DNA of 64,000 nucleotides from a virus (taxonomy: Duplodnaviria > Caudoviricetes), in IMG/VR virus record IMGVR_UViG_3300005326_000040, positions 224,001-288,000 of that record. One strand, given 5' to 3'. A model generated the notes under the pieces. The model was not told the DNA's origin. It was given only the letters and a program-made list of their open reading frames with translations, and made no database searches. The stretch's first letter is position 1; each line of letters opens with the position of its first letter. Below are positions 3,754 to 50,049 of this stretch, piece after piece. The translations under genes were made by a program, and so were the position numbers.

Positions 3754-4032
3754 ATGAGTGAGGGGTCTAGGTGTAGAAGGCAGGAAAAGCGAGCCGCCAA
3801 ATTTAACAGAGGTCTTGTAGCGGCTAAAGATTTAGAAGCCGTAATGGGAATGACTTGTGAAGATGCTGAGAAATATGCGTCAGAAAATAATCTGACGATT
3901 AACATAAGGTCTTGCGATGGTTGTCGGCAACCTCTTCATTTGAATCGAATCGGCCCAAATATCTTAAGTATTGATATTGAAAATGGTTTTGTGGTTCAAG
4001 TAACTTCTAATAGAAGAATGGTTATTGAATAA
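3754..4032 (+). CDS. hypothetical protein, possible I78/I13 inhibitor-like fold
   Basis: GMT.EDA...A..NNL.I...ILSIDIENG.V pattern. Confidence 0.5.
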   Translation: MSEGSRCRRQEKRAAKFNRGLVAAKDLEAVMGMTCEDAEKYASENNLTINIRSCDGCRQPLHLNRIGPNILSIDIENGFVVQVTSNRRMVIE

Positions 4033-6116: not shown

Positions 6117-6797
6117 TCAGCTAATTACTCGGCACGAATCTTTTACAGTTTGCGCAATAGCATCCCATTGCGATTCTTCCGTGATATCAAAATCGAAAGG
6201 AATTCGACAAATGCGAGCTGCATGAGCCCAAGGAAGAAGAGCTTGCTCAGCTTCTCGTAACAATTCTACATAGCCTGTTCGTAGATCTTTTAGGTATTCA
6301 AGCGGAACACTAGACTCCGCATTCCTGTTGCGTTTTTTCATGCGATTGAAAGCGGTTTCAGGCTGGACATCGAGGTAGATTAGTAGCGTTGGTGGAAGAA
6401 GACTTCGACACATTATGTTGTAACATATTTCATATGTCTCCCAATCTAATTGTTCAATGTGGCCCGCATCTCGAAGCATTTTAGCAAAAACTCTGTCACC
6501 AGGCAGCGACCGATCAATGACGGCGCCTGAGAAGCCACCTACTCCAGTAGCCTCATATGACGCAAGCTGTTGCATGGAATAACGCTGGTGAAGTAAAAAG
6601 ATTTGCATTGGGAACGCCCATTTTTTGGGGTCCTTATAGAATTTTTCTAGATAAGGATTCTCAATTCCTTCTCCGTTTCCAACAGGCTCCTCTAATAGTC
6701 GTAAATTCAGTCTTGAAGCTATTTTTTTGCTAAACGTGCTTTTCCCGCAGGCTATGATTCCTTCGACAACAATTAGTGGCTTGAAAATGTTTGGCAT
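6117..6797 (-). CDS. deoxynucleoside kinase (dNK/dGK family)
   Basis: EGIIACGKST P-loop, DRS motif, IYLDV, R.KKRNR lid; start reassigned to MPNIF. Confidence 0.9.
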   Translation of the reverse strand: MPNIFKPLIVVEGIIACGKSTFSKKIASRLNLRLLEEPVGNGEGIENPYLEKFYKDPKKWAFPMQIFLLHQRYSMQQLASYEATGVGGFSGAVIDRSLPGDRVFAKMLRDAGHIEQLDWETYEICYNIMCRSLLPPTLLIYLDVQPETAFNRMKKRNRNAESSVPLEYLKDLRTGYVELLREAEQALLPWAHAARICRIPFDFDITEESQWDAIAQTVKDSCRVIS

Positions 6798-6920
6798 ATT
6801 TTGATACCTTTTGTTGGGGTGTGTTTGGATATATAACGCTCTGAAACATACGCGACGAATAAAAACTACTAATACTGATGTATTTTTGCACAACCACAAC
6901 AAGTGGAGTATATAGGACAA

Positions 6921-7024
6921 GATGCTTAGCGTAAGCACAGCAACAGATGGACGCAGATTGGAGGGACAAATTAGTTCCTCTAGGCGTCTCCTTGCCCTTG
7001 AATTATCGTATTAAAGCTTCACCA
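6921..7024 (+). ncRNA. candidate structured ncRNA ending in ACCA
   Basis: GATGCTT/AAGCTTC terminal helix + ACCA; internal GACGC/GCGTC and GAGGGAC/GTTCCTC stems; starts 6 nt after a TATATA motif. Confidence 0.4.
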
Positions 7025-7036
7025 AATTTCGATTTA

Positions 7037-7119
7037 GGTGGAGTGTGTGAGTGGTTAAAACAGCTTGACTGTAAATCAGGTCCCTTCGGGGTTCGTCGGT
7101 TCAAATCCGGCCTCCACCA
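7037..7119 (+). tRNA. tRNA-Tyr(GTA)
   Basis: GGTGGAG/CTCCACC acceptor, CTTGA-CT-GTA-AA-TCAGG anticodon arm, long variable arm, TTCAAAT T-loop; CCA not encoded. Confidence 0.95.
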
Positions 7120-7135
7120 CAAAGGAAAATTTTAT

Positions 7136-7277
7136 AGGTCGTTGGTCGAGTGGTCGAAGACGCCTCACGGTGAGTGGGGAGTGGCACGGTTTCCGGAAGC
7201 CGAACAGAAACAGTCTGGATGTTCGCGCGAACAAAAAGATTGTTGCCACCTCATTGGTTCAAATCCAGTACGGCCTA
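7136..7277 (+). ncRNA. tRNA-like RNA with giant (73-nt) branched variable arm
   Basis: All four tRNA arms pair; anticodon loop CGGTGAG lacks U33. Confidence 0.75.
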
Positions 7278-7288
7278 CTATTAAATTA

Positions 7289-7365
7289 GGGACGGTAGCT
7301 CAGTTGGTTAGAGCGTTTGCCTGATAAGCAAAAGGTCGGCAGTCCGATTCTGCCTCGTCCCACCA
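7289..7365 (+). tRNA. tRNA-Ile(GAT)
   Basis: GGGACGG/TCGTCCC acceptor, TTTGC-CT-GAT-AA-GCAAA, CCA encoded; T-loop TCCGATT. Confidence 0.9.
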
Positions 7366-11430: not shown

Positions 11431-11502
11431 GGACGGGTAGCTGAGATGGATTAGCGCGATTTTGAAACAATCGAGACGCCAGATCGTTACTGGCCCTGTC
11501 CA
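11431..11502 (+). tRNA. tRNA-Phe(GAA), atypical T-loop
   Basis: GGACGGG/CCTGTCC acceptor, CGATT-TT-GAA-AC-AATCG, T-arm GCCAG-ATCGTTA-CTGGC. Confidence 0.8.
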
Positions 11503-12191
11503 CTGGTTGGCGGATATTTTCGAAGTCGTTTTCTAATCGCATTGTCAGAAACCCCTAGTTCTTTGGAAACCTGAAGATAGTTTGAGTTATCAACCATACT
11601 TTGTAATGTATTGCTGTCTGGCCACATTATCTTGGTATGTTTGTTTCTATTTAGTTTGTCTTTGCATTTCTTGCACCGGTAAGATTTCCTGGATATCTTG
11701 CAACCACAATCGGTACATCGTTTTGGCCTTGTTGTATATTGTCCACGACAGTATGTTGTTGTCTGAGAATGGCAATTGGGGCACAACAATCTCAAATTAC
11801 TAAGTTGATTGTTGGTTGTGTTTCCATCTTTGTGATCTAAATGAAGTGTTAACTTCTTGTTTTGCCATTGATTGATTCCACACTCAGAGCACTTGTCTTC
11901 TAGAACTTGTTCTTTGATGAGTCTGTTTTTGAGATGTGCGGTTGATGCATAAGTGCTGTTTTCAACTAATATTTCATTCAATGGTAACTTTTTCTTGAAA
12001 TTACCTGCATTGTTGTCTGGCATCCTGAGATGAGATACATCAATATTCAAGCGTCTAACATGTTTATCAATTGATTTGTAATTACCGGAATTGACACTAG
12101 AATACCCAAGCTTCCTTATAATTTCTGCTTTGGTGGTGCTTGTTTCAACAGCTCTGATAAGGTCTTTGTCTGTCCATGTACGATAACTCAT
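11487..12191 (-). CDS. HNH homing endonuclease
   Basis: CSECG...LHLDHKDGNTTNNQLSNLRLLCPNCHSQT, extra Zn finger, C-terminal HTH; GGAGG RBS before MSYRT. Confidence 0.9.
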   Translation of the reverse strand: MSYRTWTDKDLIRAVETSTTKAEIIRKLGYSSVNSGNYKSIDKHVRRLNIDVSHLRMPDNNAGNFKKKLPLNEILVENSTYASTAHLKNRLIKEQVLEDKCSECGINQWQNKKLTLHLDHKDGNTTNNQLSNLRLLCPNCHSQTTTYCRGQYTTRPKRCTDCGCKISRKSYRCKKCKDKLNRNKHTKIMWPDSNTLQSMVDNSNYLQVSKELGVSDNAIRKRLRKYPPTSGQGQ

Positions 12192-12493: not shown

Positions 12494-12571
12494 GGTGGTG
12501 GTAGCCAAGAGGTCTAAGGCGCTGGATTGTGGCTCCAGTTATCGCGGGTTCAAATCCCGTCCATCACCCCA
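12494..12571 (+). tRNA. tRNA-His(GTG)
   Basis: G-1:C73 pair, GTGGTGG/CCATCAC, CTGGA-TT-GTG-GC-TCCAG, CCA encoded. Confidence 0.95.
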
Positions 12572-27756: not shown

Positions 27757-28273
27757 AACAGAATTCAAGTTCACGGTTAATAAAGACCTTCTTCCGTCTT
27801 TATCAGATGCTTTATTTCGTCCGATAAATATCAAACAATTTTACCTTTCAGTTGGGGATTCATATTCTCCAGAAGTTCGAGTAAGGATTGAAGATGGCGT
27901 AAATTATCATCATGCGGAAATGACCATTAAAAGTGCCGTAGCCGACTATGTTAGGAAAGAAGTTTCTATACCAATAGAACCGGAAAAAGTTGAAGATCTT
28001 TTAGAAATGAAGGTTGGGCATATTATTGAAAAAACACGGTATCTTTTTACAATGACTGGCGCTCATTCTCCTCAGCTTGCCGGTAAGACTTTATGGGAAA
28101 TCGATATATATAAAGGCGCAAACGAAGGATTAATAATAGCTGAGTTTGAGATTCCTAGGAACTTCGAGACAGCGTATAGTTTTACGCCTCCAGCATGGGT
28201 TCTTGAAGATGTAACTAGAATGCCTAAATATAAGAATTCTCATCTAGCTTTGACGCCTTTTGTTCGGTGGTAA
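27746..28273 (+). CDS. CYTH-domain protein
   Basis: ETEFKF (ExExK), RVR, IEKTRY, WEID, AEFE. Confidence 0.9.
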   Translation: MATETEFKFTVNKDLLPSLSDALFRPINIKQFYLSVGDSYSPEVRVRIEDGVNYHHAEMTIKSAVADYVRKEVSIPIEPEKVEDLLEMKVGHIIEKTRYLFTMTGAHSPQLAGKTLWEIDIYKGANEGLIIAEFEIPRNFETAYSFTPPAWVLEDVTRMPKYKNSHLALTPFVRW

Positions 28274-46657: not shown

Positions 46658-47890
46658 ATGAAGCTGATTATAGTACCAGACATTCATATAGGGAAACAAA
46701 CATCTATTGGCAAAGATGCAATAGGGGTTGGATTGAATTCAAGAGTTCAAGACCAAGCGGACTTGCTTGATTTTGTGTATTCTAAGATTCTTGAAATTAA
46801 ACCGTTGTCGGTTATACTTTTAGGTGATATCTGGGAGGATGTTAATCCTCGTTCTTCTTATGTTCGTGTAGTTTTTGCGTGGATTAAGAAGATTGTCGAT
46901 TTGAATATTTCGGTACACATTATTATGGGGAACCATGATTTTGTGCGCAGCGGGCATGAGCGAGTTTCTATGTTGGATTCGTTTGATGCTTTACAAATGG
47001 AACGAGTTCACATTCATCGTAATATTGAACCGATTTATTTCAACGAACAATGTGCTGCTGTTGCAGTTCCGTTTTGTGACCGTAAACAATTAATGCTTCC
47101 AACCATTCATGAAGCGCAGGGTCATGTTATAAAAAATGTTATCGCAACAAGATTGGAAATTTTCAAAAGACTAGAAAGTGTCAAAAACACAGAAAACTTA
47201 AAGGTTATCATGTTGGGACATTTAGCTTTAGAAGGAAGCTTTTATGTCGGCGATGAAGTTGATGATGAGTCGAATGAAATTTTCGTTCCTCTAGAAGCTT
47301 TTGCTGGGTATGATTGCGCTATTATGGGACATGTGCATAACCAGCAGGAGTTATATCGAGACGGACGAACTGTCTTTGGACATTTGGGAAGTTTAGACAA
47401 AACATCTTTTAGTGAAAAAGATAAGTTTATCGCTGTCTATGACCCTGACGTTGGATTAGATTATATTAAGCTTCCATGTAGAGAGTTGATTGATATTGAC
47501 ATTGATGTTCCTTCTGAAGAAAAAGATGCGACATCTTATGTTTCGCAGCAAATTGAAAAAAACAAAGACGCTTTTGAAAACTCTATTGTTCGAATAAAAG
47601 TAAAGTTAAATTCTCATGACGCAGAAAATGTTGATAAAGACAAAATCATTGCTAATTTGAACAAAAATGGAGTGTTTCATGTCCCGTCTTTTTGTGAGAC
47701 GAGAAGTTTAGACAGAGTTTTAGTTAAAAATGCAGAAGTAGACGAGTCCGTAAATCCGATTCAAGGCTTCAAAATTTTTCTCAAGACTATTGATGCCGAG
47801 CCTGAATTCAAGGACGAGTGTTTTGAGCTTGGTAATACGGTTATCAAAACGTGTTTTGCAAACTTAGCAAATAAAGGAAATACTAAATGA
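46658..47890 (+). CDS. sbcD: SbcD/Mre11/gp47-like nuclease
   Basis: DIH, GD, GNHD, GH, GHVH phosphoesterase motifs. Confidence 0.9.
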   Translation: MKLIIVPDIHIGKQTSIGKDAIGVGLNSRVQDQADLLDFVYSKILEIKPLSVILLGDIWEDVNPRSSYVRVVFAWIKKIVDLNISVHIIMGNHDFVRSGHERVSMLDSFDALQMERVHIHRNIEPIYFNEQCAAVAVPFCDRKQLMLPTIHEAQGHVIKNVIATRLEIFKRLESVKNTENLKVIMLGHLALEGSFYVGDEVDDESNEIFVPLEAFAGYDCAIMGHVHNQQELYRDGRTVFGHLGSLDKTSFSEKDKFIAVYDPDVGLDYIKLPCRELIDIDIDVPSEEKDATSYVSQQIEKNKDAFENSIVRIKVKLNSHDAENVDKDKIIANLNKNGVFHVPSFCETRSLDRVLVKNAEVDESVNPIQGFKIFLKTIDAEPEFKDECFELGNTVIKTCFANLANKGNTK

Positions 47891-50049
47891 TTCCGGGTAA
47901 GCTAACTTTAAAAAACTTCAAAGCTCACAAAGAATCAGTCGTTGACTTTAGTAAGCTTGGTACGGCGATTCTAATTGTAGGAATTGAAGATAGTTCATCT
48001 GATGTAAGCAATGCTGTTGGAAAGTCTACTCTTTTTAGCGCTATTGAATATGTATTGTTTAACATTAACTCTACCGGAGAAATTGCTCGGGTTATTAGAG
48101 ACGGGGCTGCTAAATGTGAGGTAGAATATGAATTTAGCATGTCGGACGGTTCACATTACTTGATTAATAGGTACCGAACCAAGACGACAAATGGCGTTAC
48201 GCTAAAGGAAAGAAACAAAGACGGAGAATGGAAAGATATTTCCGGAAGGACGCCATCAGCTACAGACAAAGAGATTACAAAGATTATCAAAATCAATAGC
48301 AAGACATTTCAGAACACGTCCTATTTTATGCAGGATGATGTTGAAAATCTTGCGAAGGCTCGTCCGGAAGAGCGAAAAAAGATTATCAGTTCCATGTTGG
48401 AGCTAGGTATTTGGAAAAAGTTTAAAGAAGCATTGGATGAGGAGCGGAAACCTTTTGACAAAGAGTTGGCAATTGTCAAAGCCAAGATTGGTGATCTTGG
48501 AACTAGTCCACAAATTGAGTTGACAAACCTGGAAAATGGGCTGGAAGCTATTAGAGACTCTATTGCTCAAAGTAATATCAAATTAGAAGATGCAAAACCA
48601 AAGTTGAGCAGCAAAAAAGAATTGCTGGGGCAACTAAAGAATCTTGCAACAGATCACGCTCAGATTGACCAAAAATATAACGACGCGATTTTGTTCAAGA
48701 AAGAAACAGAGGACAATGCGAAATACATTGAATCCTCTTTGAAAGACTCCAAAGTGGAGTTGGATCGTTATGAAACCAAGGTGAAAAAAAATGATGAAGC
48801 GGTCAAAACCCGGCTTGAGAAGCTAAAGCAATTAATTGAAGAAGCTCCTCTTGCGCCGAATATGAAAAAATATGAAAGCGTAAACAATAATTTAGCTTCC
48901 CTTAACGTTGCGTTAAAGGAAGAAAGAGCCACGCTTAAAGCTCTTCTTATGGAATTGCCAGAAGACGCTATGTGTCCGGCGTGTTCAACTGTGTTGGATG
49001 AGCAACATAGGCAAGAACTAAAGGATTCTAAGCAAGTTCGCGCAAAGAAGGTTCGTGCTGAGATTGAAGAACTTCAAAAAAAGATCACTATGTGCGAGGA
49101 GGATATCGCATATTTTGAATCTCAAATTGAAGCGAGCAACGCACATAATAAACAAAAGACTCAGATTTCCGGAGAAATCACAGTTTACAATGAAGATATC
49201 CGTGTTTGTGCAATCTCAATAGAGAGGCTAAAAGAAAGAATTACTTCTTTAGAGGACAAATATACAAAAACGCAAAGTTCTATTCAAAAGGCCGCGAAGA
49301 TGTACGAAGACGCTAAACGTCTGAAAGTAGCTTCGATGAGCCAGGATAGCAATGATAAAGAAATAGAACTGGTTTCTAAGGAAATCGCAGAGCTTGATAA
49401 GATTGTCAATACACATAGTAGATTCATTAATGAAAACATGTCGGAAATCGGTTCTTATCAAGAACGAATTGAACAAAAGAAAAAAGATGTAAAGAAGAAG
49501 CTTGAGCTTGACGCTAAAGAAAAAGAGCTAACTAAAAAGCTAAAAGTCTATGACACGGTTGGTTTTGCCTTTTCAAGCAAAGGCATTCCGTTTATGATTA
49601 TCAGTTCCGTTTTGGATTCTATTCAAGAAGAAACCAATAAGGTTCTCAGTATCCTTCGGAAAAATATGCAGGTTCAGTTCATTATTGACAAAGAGACGGA
49701 TGGTGAGATAAAAGATACGTTAGATATGAAGTTTTTTGCTAACAACAAAGAATGGTCTTATGATGAGCTTTCAGGTGGACAAAAAGCTTCTGTGGCTTTG
49801 GCTTTGAAGTTCGCGATGGCTGTTGTTAGCAGAAGACGATGCGGAGCAGATATAAAGCTTCTTATGTTGGATGAAGTAGACCAGCCACTAGATGCTGCAA
49901 GTACCGAATCTTTTTATCAGATTATTCGAGAATGGTCTAAGGATATGACTATTATGGTTATTACCCATAGAGAACAATTGAAGACTAAGTTTCCAAATTT
50001 TATTTTGGTTGAAAAGAAGAATGATACAACTTCGGCAATGGTGGTATGA
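47887..50049 (+). CDS. sbcC: SbcC/Rad50/gp46-like ATPase
   Basis: NAVGKST, CPAC zinc hook, LSGGQ, LDEVD, ITH. Confidence 0.93.
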   Translation: MIPGKLTLKNFKAHKESVVDFSKLGTAILIVGIEDSSSDVSNAVGKSTLFSAIEYVLFNINSTGEIARVIRDGAAKCEVEYEFSMSDGSHYLINRYRTKTTNGVTLKERNKDGEWKDISGRTPSATDKEITKIIKINSKTFQNTSYFMQDDVENLAKARPEERKKIISSMLELGIWKKFKEALDEERKPFDKELAIVKAKIGDLGTSPQIELTNLENGLEAIRDSIAQSNIKLEDAKPKLSSKKELLGQLKNLATDHAQIDQKYNDAILFKKETEDNAKYIESSLKDSKVELDRYETKVKKNDEAVKTRLEKLKQLIEEAPLAPNMKKYESVNNNLASLNVALKEERATLKALLMELPEDAMCPACSTVLDEQHRQELKDSKQVRAKKVRAEIEELQKKITMCEEDIAYFESQIEASNAHNKQKTQISGEITVYNEDIRVCAISIERLKERITSLEDKYTKTQSSIQKAAKMYEDAKRLKVASMSQDSNDKEIELVSKEIAELDKIVNTHSRFINENMSEIGSYQERIEQKKKDVKKKLELDAKEKELTKKLKVYDTVGFAFSSKGIPFMIISSVLDSIQEETNKVLSILRKNMQVQFIIDKETDGEIKDTLDMKFFANNKEWSYDELSGGQKASVALALKFAMAVVSRRRCGADIKLLMLDEVDQPLDAASTESFYQIIREWSKDMTIMVITHREQLKTKFPNFILVEKKNDTTSAMVV

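Follow-up and report, generated by a model that had tools for sequence, protein, structure and literature searches.

A tRNA-shaped RNA gene with a branched 73-nt variable arm in a huge phage, probably a non-decoding derivative of a class-II tRNA

Background

Does an RNA gene that has the shape of a tRNA, a variable arm of 73 nt and a G at position 33 still decode, or has it been put to another use? This question is raised by a 142-nt tRNA-shaped RNA gene in a viral genome, which is called X here and occupies positions 7136–7277 on the plus strand of the window. The window is the whole 64,000-nt stretch of DNA that was analyzed, corresponding to bases 224001–288000 of a 338-kb viral record with an estimated completeness of 97%. 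Since T4, phage tRNA clusters have been known to contain tRNA-like stable RNAs without an explained function.

Results

Genome and neighbours of X

The only public run with this DNA is a groundwater metagenome (DNA library), and its reads contain no variants. The genome encodes a DnaE-type polymerase, topoisomerase I, trigger factor and DnaJ, which indicates that it belongs to a huge phage, and the polymerase shares no more than about 31% identity with that of any GenBank phage.

X is located between the genes of tRNA-Tyr(GUA) and tRNA-Ile(GAU), and both spacers are A/U-rich (Table 1). The adjacent tRNA-Tyr is also the tRNA most similar to X in its own genome. The operon adjoins a deoxynucleoside kinase (dNK) gene, and a structured leader RNA is located directly upstream of tRNA-Tyr; leader and tRNA-Tyr are 74–81% identical in three related contigs (L080, L092 and L093), so the leader, an "ACCA-ended RNA", is conserved. 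Neither a sigma-70 promoter nor an intrinsic terminator was detected on the plus strand near X. Two ORFs across X (6947–7324, plus strand; 7076–7249, minus strand) were taken as spurious because they run through real tRNA genes.

Elsewhere the genome encodes a nucleotidyltransferase of the CCA-adding/poly(A)-polymerase family (PolyA_pol/CCA-type; genome positions 296282–296665) and two proteins with an Rnl2-type RNA_ligase domain (PF09414; 198734–199303 and 151730–152269). Searches of the phage genome gave no RtcB, no tRNA splicing endonuclease (PF01974) and no class-IIa synthetase core. A separate canonical tRNA-His exists as reported in an earlier note on this DNA, which had placed its start one base too early, at 12494.

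Two further ARAGORN calls in the window were compared with Rfam. The "tRNA-Asn(att)" at 49924–50011 is probably a false positive, because it is located within an SbcC-like ORF (47887–50049) and is not called by Rfam. The tRNA-Phe(gaa) at 11431–11503 is also missing from the Rfam gathering-threshold list.

Table 1 Positions of X, its parts, its neighbours and its relatives or analogues (window positions unless a contig is named)
Feature	Position	Strand	Remarks
Acceptor stem	7136–7142 / 7270–7276	+	7 pairs including one G-U; all 7 form in 3 of 3 copies
Class-II type D-arm	7145–7161	+	GTC 7145–7147, GAC 7159–7161; 3-bp stem, 11-nt loop GAGUGGUCGAA
Anticodon-like arm	7163–7179	+	CCTCA 7163–7167, loop CGGTGAG 7168–7174, TGGGG 7175–7179; 5-bp stem
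Variable region	7180–7252	+	73 nt, three-way junction
Variable-arm closing stem	GTGGCA 7181–7186 / TGCCAC 7244–7249	+	6 uninterrupted pairs
Variable-arm hairpin 1	7187–7202	+	CGGTTT-CCGG-AAGCCG; 6-bp stem, CCGG loop
A-rich junction linker	7203–7209	+	from sequence; unpaired when the arm is folded alone
Variable-arm hairpin 2	7210–7243	+	outer 7-bp stem ACAGTCT/AGATTGT, GGAU/AAAA internal loop
T-arm	7253–7269	+	ATTGG-TTCAAAT-CCAGT; canonical loop TTCAAAT
dNK gene	6117–6938	-	adjoins the tRNA operon
Structured leader RNA	6904–7030		directly upstream of tRNA-Tyr; folding z -2.29
tRNA-Tyr(GUA)	7037–7120	+	15 nt upstream of X; ARAGORN; Rfam tRNA 54.9 bits
tRNA-Ile(GAU)	7289–7365	+	11 nt downstream of X; ARAGORN and Rfam
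Canonical tRNA-His	12495–12571		G-1 and C73; ARAGORN, Rfam
L080 copy 1	L080:2229–2366	-	138 nt; 9 nt before tRNA-Ile(GAU)
L080 tRNA-Ile(GAU) after copy 1	L080:2146–2219
L080 copy 2	L080:2878–2982	-	105 nt; 5 nt before a tRNA match
Ile-like tRNA after copy 2	L080:2804–2872	-	Rfam 42.8 bits; loop CTGATAA; no ARAGORN call
Family B copies	L009:5111–5248, L011:9567–9701, L014:737–875, L022:2604–2739, L034:2617–2755, L042:77–214		viral and metagenome contigs

Structure and fold of X

All helices that had been proposed for X in the earlier note were found in place, and RNAfold agrees with them. The unconstrained minimum free energy (MFE) structure is the cloverleaf. Its energy of -51.6 kcal/mol was reached by 1 of 200 shuffles (z -2.47), and its eight helices contain zero mismatches in this phage. 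By inspection the tRNA core is complete (U8, A14, G15:C48, G18G19, A21 and G26:A44), and so is that of the T-arm (T54-T55-C56, A58 and G53:C61). The loop between the two strands of the D stem reads GAGTGGTCGAA. A73 is base 7277, with which T7135 is able to pair, and CCA is not encoded. With its 3-bp D stem, extended D loop and base-paired variable arm, X belongs to the class-II tRNAs by shape. Of the properties of a canonical elongator tRNA, it has the core nucleotides and the cloverleaf, but neither the RF00005 score nor an open U33 loop.

Class-II tRNAs have variable arms of roughly 13–21 nt. The arm of X starts directly after position 44 and reaches about four times the usual length. Folded alone, it has a minimum of -25.7 kcal/mol, which 1 of 200 shuffles reached (z -3.09), and 36% of the ensemble is in the MFE structure. 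Hairpin 2 contains an inner hairpin, GUUC-GCGC-GAAC, at 7221–7232, and perfect palindromes of 14 and 8 nt exist within the insert.

In the anticodon-like arm, position 33 is G, and a C32:G38 pair (probability 0.86) can close the loop to a GGUGA pentaloop. The earlier note correctly observed that CCTCA occurs twice (7163 and 7249). Its suggestion that TGGGG could switch partners is unsupported: the second CCTCA is not conserved in the homologues, and the alternative pairing is 1.7 kcal/mol worse, with a probability of about 7%.

Homologues of X and their conservation

The dNK of the X phage has many relatives (60–80% identity), most of them in non-syntenic contexts. Through dNK we reached L080, a 256-kb NCBI contig (GCA_902725465.1) from a related phage. 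Its gene order matches that of the X phage (dNK, leader RNA and tRNA-Tyr, with an R2K ATP-grasp gene farther along), and it contains two X homologues. An Ile(GAU)-type tRNA gene follows all three copies at a distance of 5–11 nt; the one after copy 2, read from its sequence, seems to lack the 5' strand of the anticodon stem. The identity of X between the two phages is about 79–81%, compared with 74% for the adjacent leader and tRNA-Tyr. Logan contigs of the L080 phage all end inside the X element, because the element is repeated.

A covariance model (R1) was built from the X alignment. It scores X at 163.5 bits and the L080 copies at 150.5 and 107.5 bits, while the top ordinary tRNA, a tRNA-Tyr, is at 53.8 bits. 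A candidate second copy in the X genome itself (81949–82102) was rejected, since it reaches only 15 bits with R1, under the ordinary tRNAs. The stretch around it (81949–82105; L100:1501–1654), downstream of tRNA-Leu(UAA), is a degenerate tRNA-like sequence with a Ser-type D-loop sequence, the stem of which is not paired; about 110 nt after the D-loop there is a perfect T arm, then TAGGCCCG-CCA, and no 5' acceptor strand matches.

Other searches returned no homologue. Using megablast and blastn against GenBank phages, X gave T-loop matches only. Protein-seeded locus searches in IMG/VR (with dNK, a 199-aa neighbour and Pol III alpha) found no X homologue, and the 199-aa neighbour had no relative among 5.8 billion proteins. 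Exact 17- to 24-mers of X and the Tyr...Ile bracketing pattern, both searched in IMG/VR, gave chance coding matches or none. A D-loop...T-loop pattern with a gap of 80–110 nt, scanned over viral, metagenome and genome collections (IMG/VR, JGI metagenomes, GTDB), matched only analogues and tandem tRNA fragments. In L092, a closer relative by dNK (79% identity), leader RNA and tRNA-Tyr are present and X is absent, which indicates that X is dispensable in some relatives.

Conservation was scored on a three-sequence alignment (A4) of X and the two L080 copies, the latter being paralogues in one genome. In this alignment 95.8% of the proposed pair cells hold, compared with 33–48% when the 3' partners are slid by 1–3 columns, and the observed pairing and covariation values were reached by 3 of 500 shuffles; these statistics are thin, because there are only three sequences and two of them are paralogues of one genome. 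Double compensatory changes among the three copies affect five pairs: acceptor pair 1-72 (A-U to G-C), closing-stem pair 3 (G-C to A-U), two pairs in hairpin 1 and T-stem pair 49-65 (A-U to G-C). Besides these five, 12 pairs changed on one side only, all via a G-U step except one (U-A to U-G). Two other closing-stem pairs pass through G-U, and the anticodon-like stem is kept through one-sided changes. The D stem and hairpin 1 are paired in 100% of cells in the three copies. Five cells in A4 are unpaired, two of which are an alignment artefact from a bulged U in copy 2. Moreover, positions 2–26 of X (25 consecutive positions) and the CCGG loop of hairpin 1 are identical in 3 of 3 copies. The compensatory changes in the closing stem and hairpin 1, together with the invariant loop, indicate selection on the RNA as folded.

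Other parts differ among the copies. The anticodon-like loop is CGGUGAG in X (7 nt), UGUU in copy 1 (4 nt) and UGUGAAUU in copy 2 (8 nt). Hairpin 2 is present in X and in copy 1, where its outer stem has two mismatches, and is cleanly absent from copy 2, in which the variable arm is a single long CCGG-capped hairpin. As for the 73-nt branched arm, its presence in relatives holds for the closing stem and hairpin 1, which are conserved, and fails for hairpin 2, which one homologue is missing. In copy 1, C61 is replaced by A and G53:C61 is broken.

Such differences could be expected if X were a decaying pseudo-tRNA, that is, a duplicated class-II tRNA with junk in its variable arm and no function. 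The variable and non-canonical anticodon loops, the lost C61 of copy 1, the missing hairpin 2 of copy 2 next to an apparently defective tRNA-Ile-like gene, the absence of X from L092 and the few relatives in the public collections searched are all in line with it. They are opposed by the five double compensatory changes and the 95.8% pairing (over three sequences), by 25 consecutive invariant positions amid flanks of 74–81% identity, by the invariant CCGG loop, and by the fold of X in this phage, which has no mismatch in eight helices and an arm far better folded than its shuffles. We regard decay as unlikely. What the damaged L080 copies and the lack of X in L092 do show is that the gene is not indispensable.

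Detection by tRNA finders and the question of decoding

With default parameters ARAGORN called no tRNA at X, and its tmRNA mode (-m) reported no tmRNA there. The Rfam tRNA model (RF00005; threshold 29 bits) had no match at 7100–7300 even at E <= 10, and none at X in the gathering-threshold scan of the window. In a detection test, every segment of 10–99 nt was deleted from X in turn and the remainder was given to ARAGORN. Once the arm was shortened, a class-II "tRNA-His(gtg)" was called (519 of 787 calls), so the arm length alone prevents detection. None of these single deletions produced a canonical anticodon arm; the nearest was the "His" one with G33. A forced ARAGORN solution, "tRNA-Glu with 51-nt intron", was discarded: its anticodon stem is mismatched and it appears only at a lowered threshold.

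The label raises the possibility that X is a working decoder, in which a class-II body with a GUG anticodon reads His codons, HisRS or an anticodon-ignoring synthetase charges it, and the enlarged arm is tolerated. Besides the ARAGORN label, GUG, A73 and U72 of X match the identity set of alpha-proteobacterial tRNA-His, which consists of GUG, A73 and U72 without G-1 (PMC3064791). E. coli tRNA-Tyr with a 98-nt aptamer placed in its variable loop (Spinach-tRNA-Tyr) is stable, is charged and is used by the ribosome (PMC5397188). In addition, L080 copy 2 passes the Rfam tRNA model with 39.3 bits. The anticodon-like arm itself argues for the opposite, since G33 replaces U33, which is near-universal in tRNAs, and the Watson-Crick pair C32:G38 closes the loop. 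The 4-nt (UGUU) and 8-nt loops of the homologues offer no usable GUG loop, a canonical tRNA-His (G-1:C73) is encoded elsewhere in the phage genome, and X gets no match from the Rfam tRNA model. Taken together, a decoding role is very unlikely.

Is the arm an excisable insert?

The earlier note had also proposed that X might be a tRNA carrying an unusual excisable insert. As an intron or small mobile element in the variable arm, such an insert would leave a mature tRNA of normal size. "Enigmatic" tRNA introns are on record in megaphages (PMC6784885), and two tRNA genes with inserts were found in the X genome. The first, a tRNA-Asn(GUU) at 27815–27946 (L003:1316–1447; ARAGORN -i; Rfam tRNA 42.6 bits), has its anticodon loop interrupted by 57 nt; a GT repeat makes the junction of this insert ambiguous, and the gene has no bulge-helix-bulge by inspection and no match to a ribozyme or intron family. 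At 161425–161802 a tRNA-Leu(CAA) contains a group I intron (L006:950–1205; Rfam Intron_gpI, 53.9 bits).

The existence of these two genes favours the proposal, as do the two Rnl2-type ligase domains of the phage, the perfect 14- and 8-nt palindromes and the behaviour of hairpin 2, which is present or absent among the homologues as a clean block of about 38 nt. However, no bulge-helix-bulge motif was seen in X by inspection, and the closing stem is uninterrupted. Rfam intron and ribozyme families gave only chance-level matches at X (sR16 and IRE, E 3.8–8), while the phage's own tRNA-Leu(CAA) intron, used as a positive control, does match Intron_gpI. Splicing endonuclease and RtcB are both missing from the phage, the closing stem and hairpin 1 are maintained by compensatory changes with an invariant loop, and the non-canonical G33 loop would remain after excision. 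A motif common to the X arm and the tRNA-Asn insert, GAACAGAA, was considered as a link between them and rejected, as 156 of 2000 shuffles reach the same, which is the chance level. An excisable insert is thus highly unlikely, and this part of the earlier note is not borne out.

Other oversized tRNA-shaped RNAs

The pattern scans also detected oversized tRNA-shaped RNAs of other kinds. Family B is a conserved RNA of about 137 nt from rumen phages, tRNA-shaped and located near tRNA genes (Table 1). Where the anticodon arm would be, it has a GCAA-capped (GNRA) non-decoding hairpin, and before the T arm come two additional hairpins (about 60 nt). In its alignment 68% of the columns are invariant, while neighbouring proteins are 30–50% identical. 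Four family B copies score 35–40 bits with the Rfam tRNA model. Family B resembles X in its D-loop sequence, non-decoding hairpin, extra hairpins and tRNA-gene neighbourhood. However, it is not homologous (37–41 bits with R1, the level of ordinary tRNAs), and its extra hairpins are arranged otherwise.

Apart from these, tRNA-Leu genes with inserts of about 45 nt in the anticodon loop were found. Class-II tRNA-like (Tyr-like) genes with a conserved insert of about 48 nt between D-arm and anticodon arm (after position 26) were also found, at L027:6668–6803, L020:1226–1361, and L071:2761–2893 and 3755–3891. They come from metagenome contigs and the cyanobacterium Prochloron, and the L027 gene keeps a Tyr(GUA) anticodon arm.

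Comparison with known systems

In the published literature, we found no natural RNA of tRNA shape whose variable arm is branched and 73 nt long. Among named RNAs, the one that comes closest by analogy is phage T4 RNA C (species 1 RNA, rnaC). This 139-nt RNA is likewise the product of a stable-RNA gene of about 140 nt in a phage tRNA cluster, with an acceptor-like terminal stem, a canonical T arm and hairpins that fill the middle. Unlike X, it has neither a D-arm nor an anticodon-like arm, whereas the extra structure of X sits in the variable arm. Aligned with each other, T4 rnaC and X are identical in the T loop only, so that placing X with T4 RNA C and RNA D describes a kind of RNA and not a homology family. 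The function of T4 RNA C is still unknown in the literature (PMC9697503).

Class-II tRNAs (bacterial tRNA-Tyr, -Ser and -Leu) share with X the 3-bp D stem, the long GAGUGGUCGAA loop, G15:C48, G26:A44 and a stem-loop variable arm. They differ from it in that X has a branched 73-nt arm, G33, a closable C32:G38 and a loop length that varies among homologues. Engineered aptamer tRNAs also combine a class-II body with a large folded module at the tip of the variable arm, but they are synthetic and have a working anticodon, whereas X occurs in nature and has a sealed anticodon loop. In aptamer-tagged allo-tRNAs, aptamers at this tip can recruit proteins (PMC7590224). The stability, processing and charging of engineered variable-arm aptamer tRNAs indicate that a large module at this site is compatible with tRNA-like handling.

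The tRNA-like domain of tmRNA and YrlA are, like X, tRNA-like modules with a non-decoding job. The alanine identity pair of tmRNA is G3:U70; pair 3-70 of X is G-C, and X has by inspection no tag reading frame and gave no match in Rfam. YrlA has closed ends, in contrast to the free acceptor ends of X. This bears on the reading of X as a Y-RNA-like or YrlA-like partner of a phage Ro60/TROVE protein. Cellular Ro/TROVE proteins do work with a tRNA-like RNA partner (PMC7824862). However, besides its free acceptor ends, X has by inspection no long basal helix of the Ro-binding type, and Rfam YrlA has no match to X in the window; the only YrlA match is sub-threshold (29 bits; cut-off 69) and extends across a tRNA junction in L080. 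We consider a Ro60 partner extremely unlikely.

Discussion

In summary, the tRNA body, the base of the arm and the CCGG hairpin are kept among the copies while the decoding loop is not, and for this reason X is read as a non-decoding RNA derived from a tRNA. It is probable that X is a conserved small RNA gene which arose from a class-II tRNA, no longer decodes and works off the ribosome via its variable arm. This reading is more likely than that of an ordinary His decoder, a decaying pseudogene or a tRNA with an excisable intron. The earlier note had suggested a functional RNA on a tRNA scaffold instead of an ordinary His decoder, and as far as the class of RNA goes this is supported: the homologues keep the cloverleaf, closing stem and hairpin 1, and the loop length varies.

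From its position in the operon, X would be co-transcribed with tRNA-Tyr and tRNA-Ile. RNase P would be expected to cut at A7136, and U-1 is found in 3 of 3 copies. The transcript would then be trimmed after A73 and completed with CCA, because none is encoded, for which the phage's own CCA-adding-type nucleotidyltransferase is available. The product may fold into a stable L-shape with a sealed anticodon end, which would allow no codon pairing, so that X would act off the ribosome. The tRNA body may account for processing and stability, and perhaps for being recognized by an enzyme that binds tRNAs. The long variable arm, in which the CCGG-capped hairpin is invariant and the second hairpin optional, may be the functional part, contacted by a partner that is either protein or RNA.

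Of the kinds of role that X might have, that of a tRNA mimic or adaptor is the most likely. Factors directed at tRNAs could be bound or titrated by it, for example a tRNA-targeting nuclease of the host, a synthetase or a protein of the phage. A more specific proposal, which we put forward tentatively as a possible but rather doubtful one, is that X is a natural "tagged tRNA": processed, CCA-tailed, perhaps aminoacylated, and kept off the ribosome by its sealed arm, with the invariant CCGG hairpin as the site that one specific protein, of phage or host, recognizes. X might then divert a tRNA-targeting defence nuclease as its decoy, or be a dedicated off-ribosome aminoacyl carrier or adaptor tied to the tRNA-Ile gene, which it always precedes.

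Genes like X are overlooked by standard tRNA finders and Rfam. Among RNAs of this kind X is an unusually clean case, with a full cloverleaf, a visibly disabled decoding end and extra structure in one arm only. One hairpin of this arm combines an invariant loop with a co-varying stem, which makes the questions of its binder and its charging testable. X and the unrelated analogues found here suggest that a tRNA body plus an RNA module is a recurrent phage design, and such RNAs would be the natural counterpart of engineered aptamer-tagged tRNAs.
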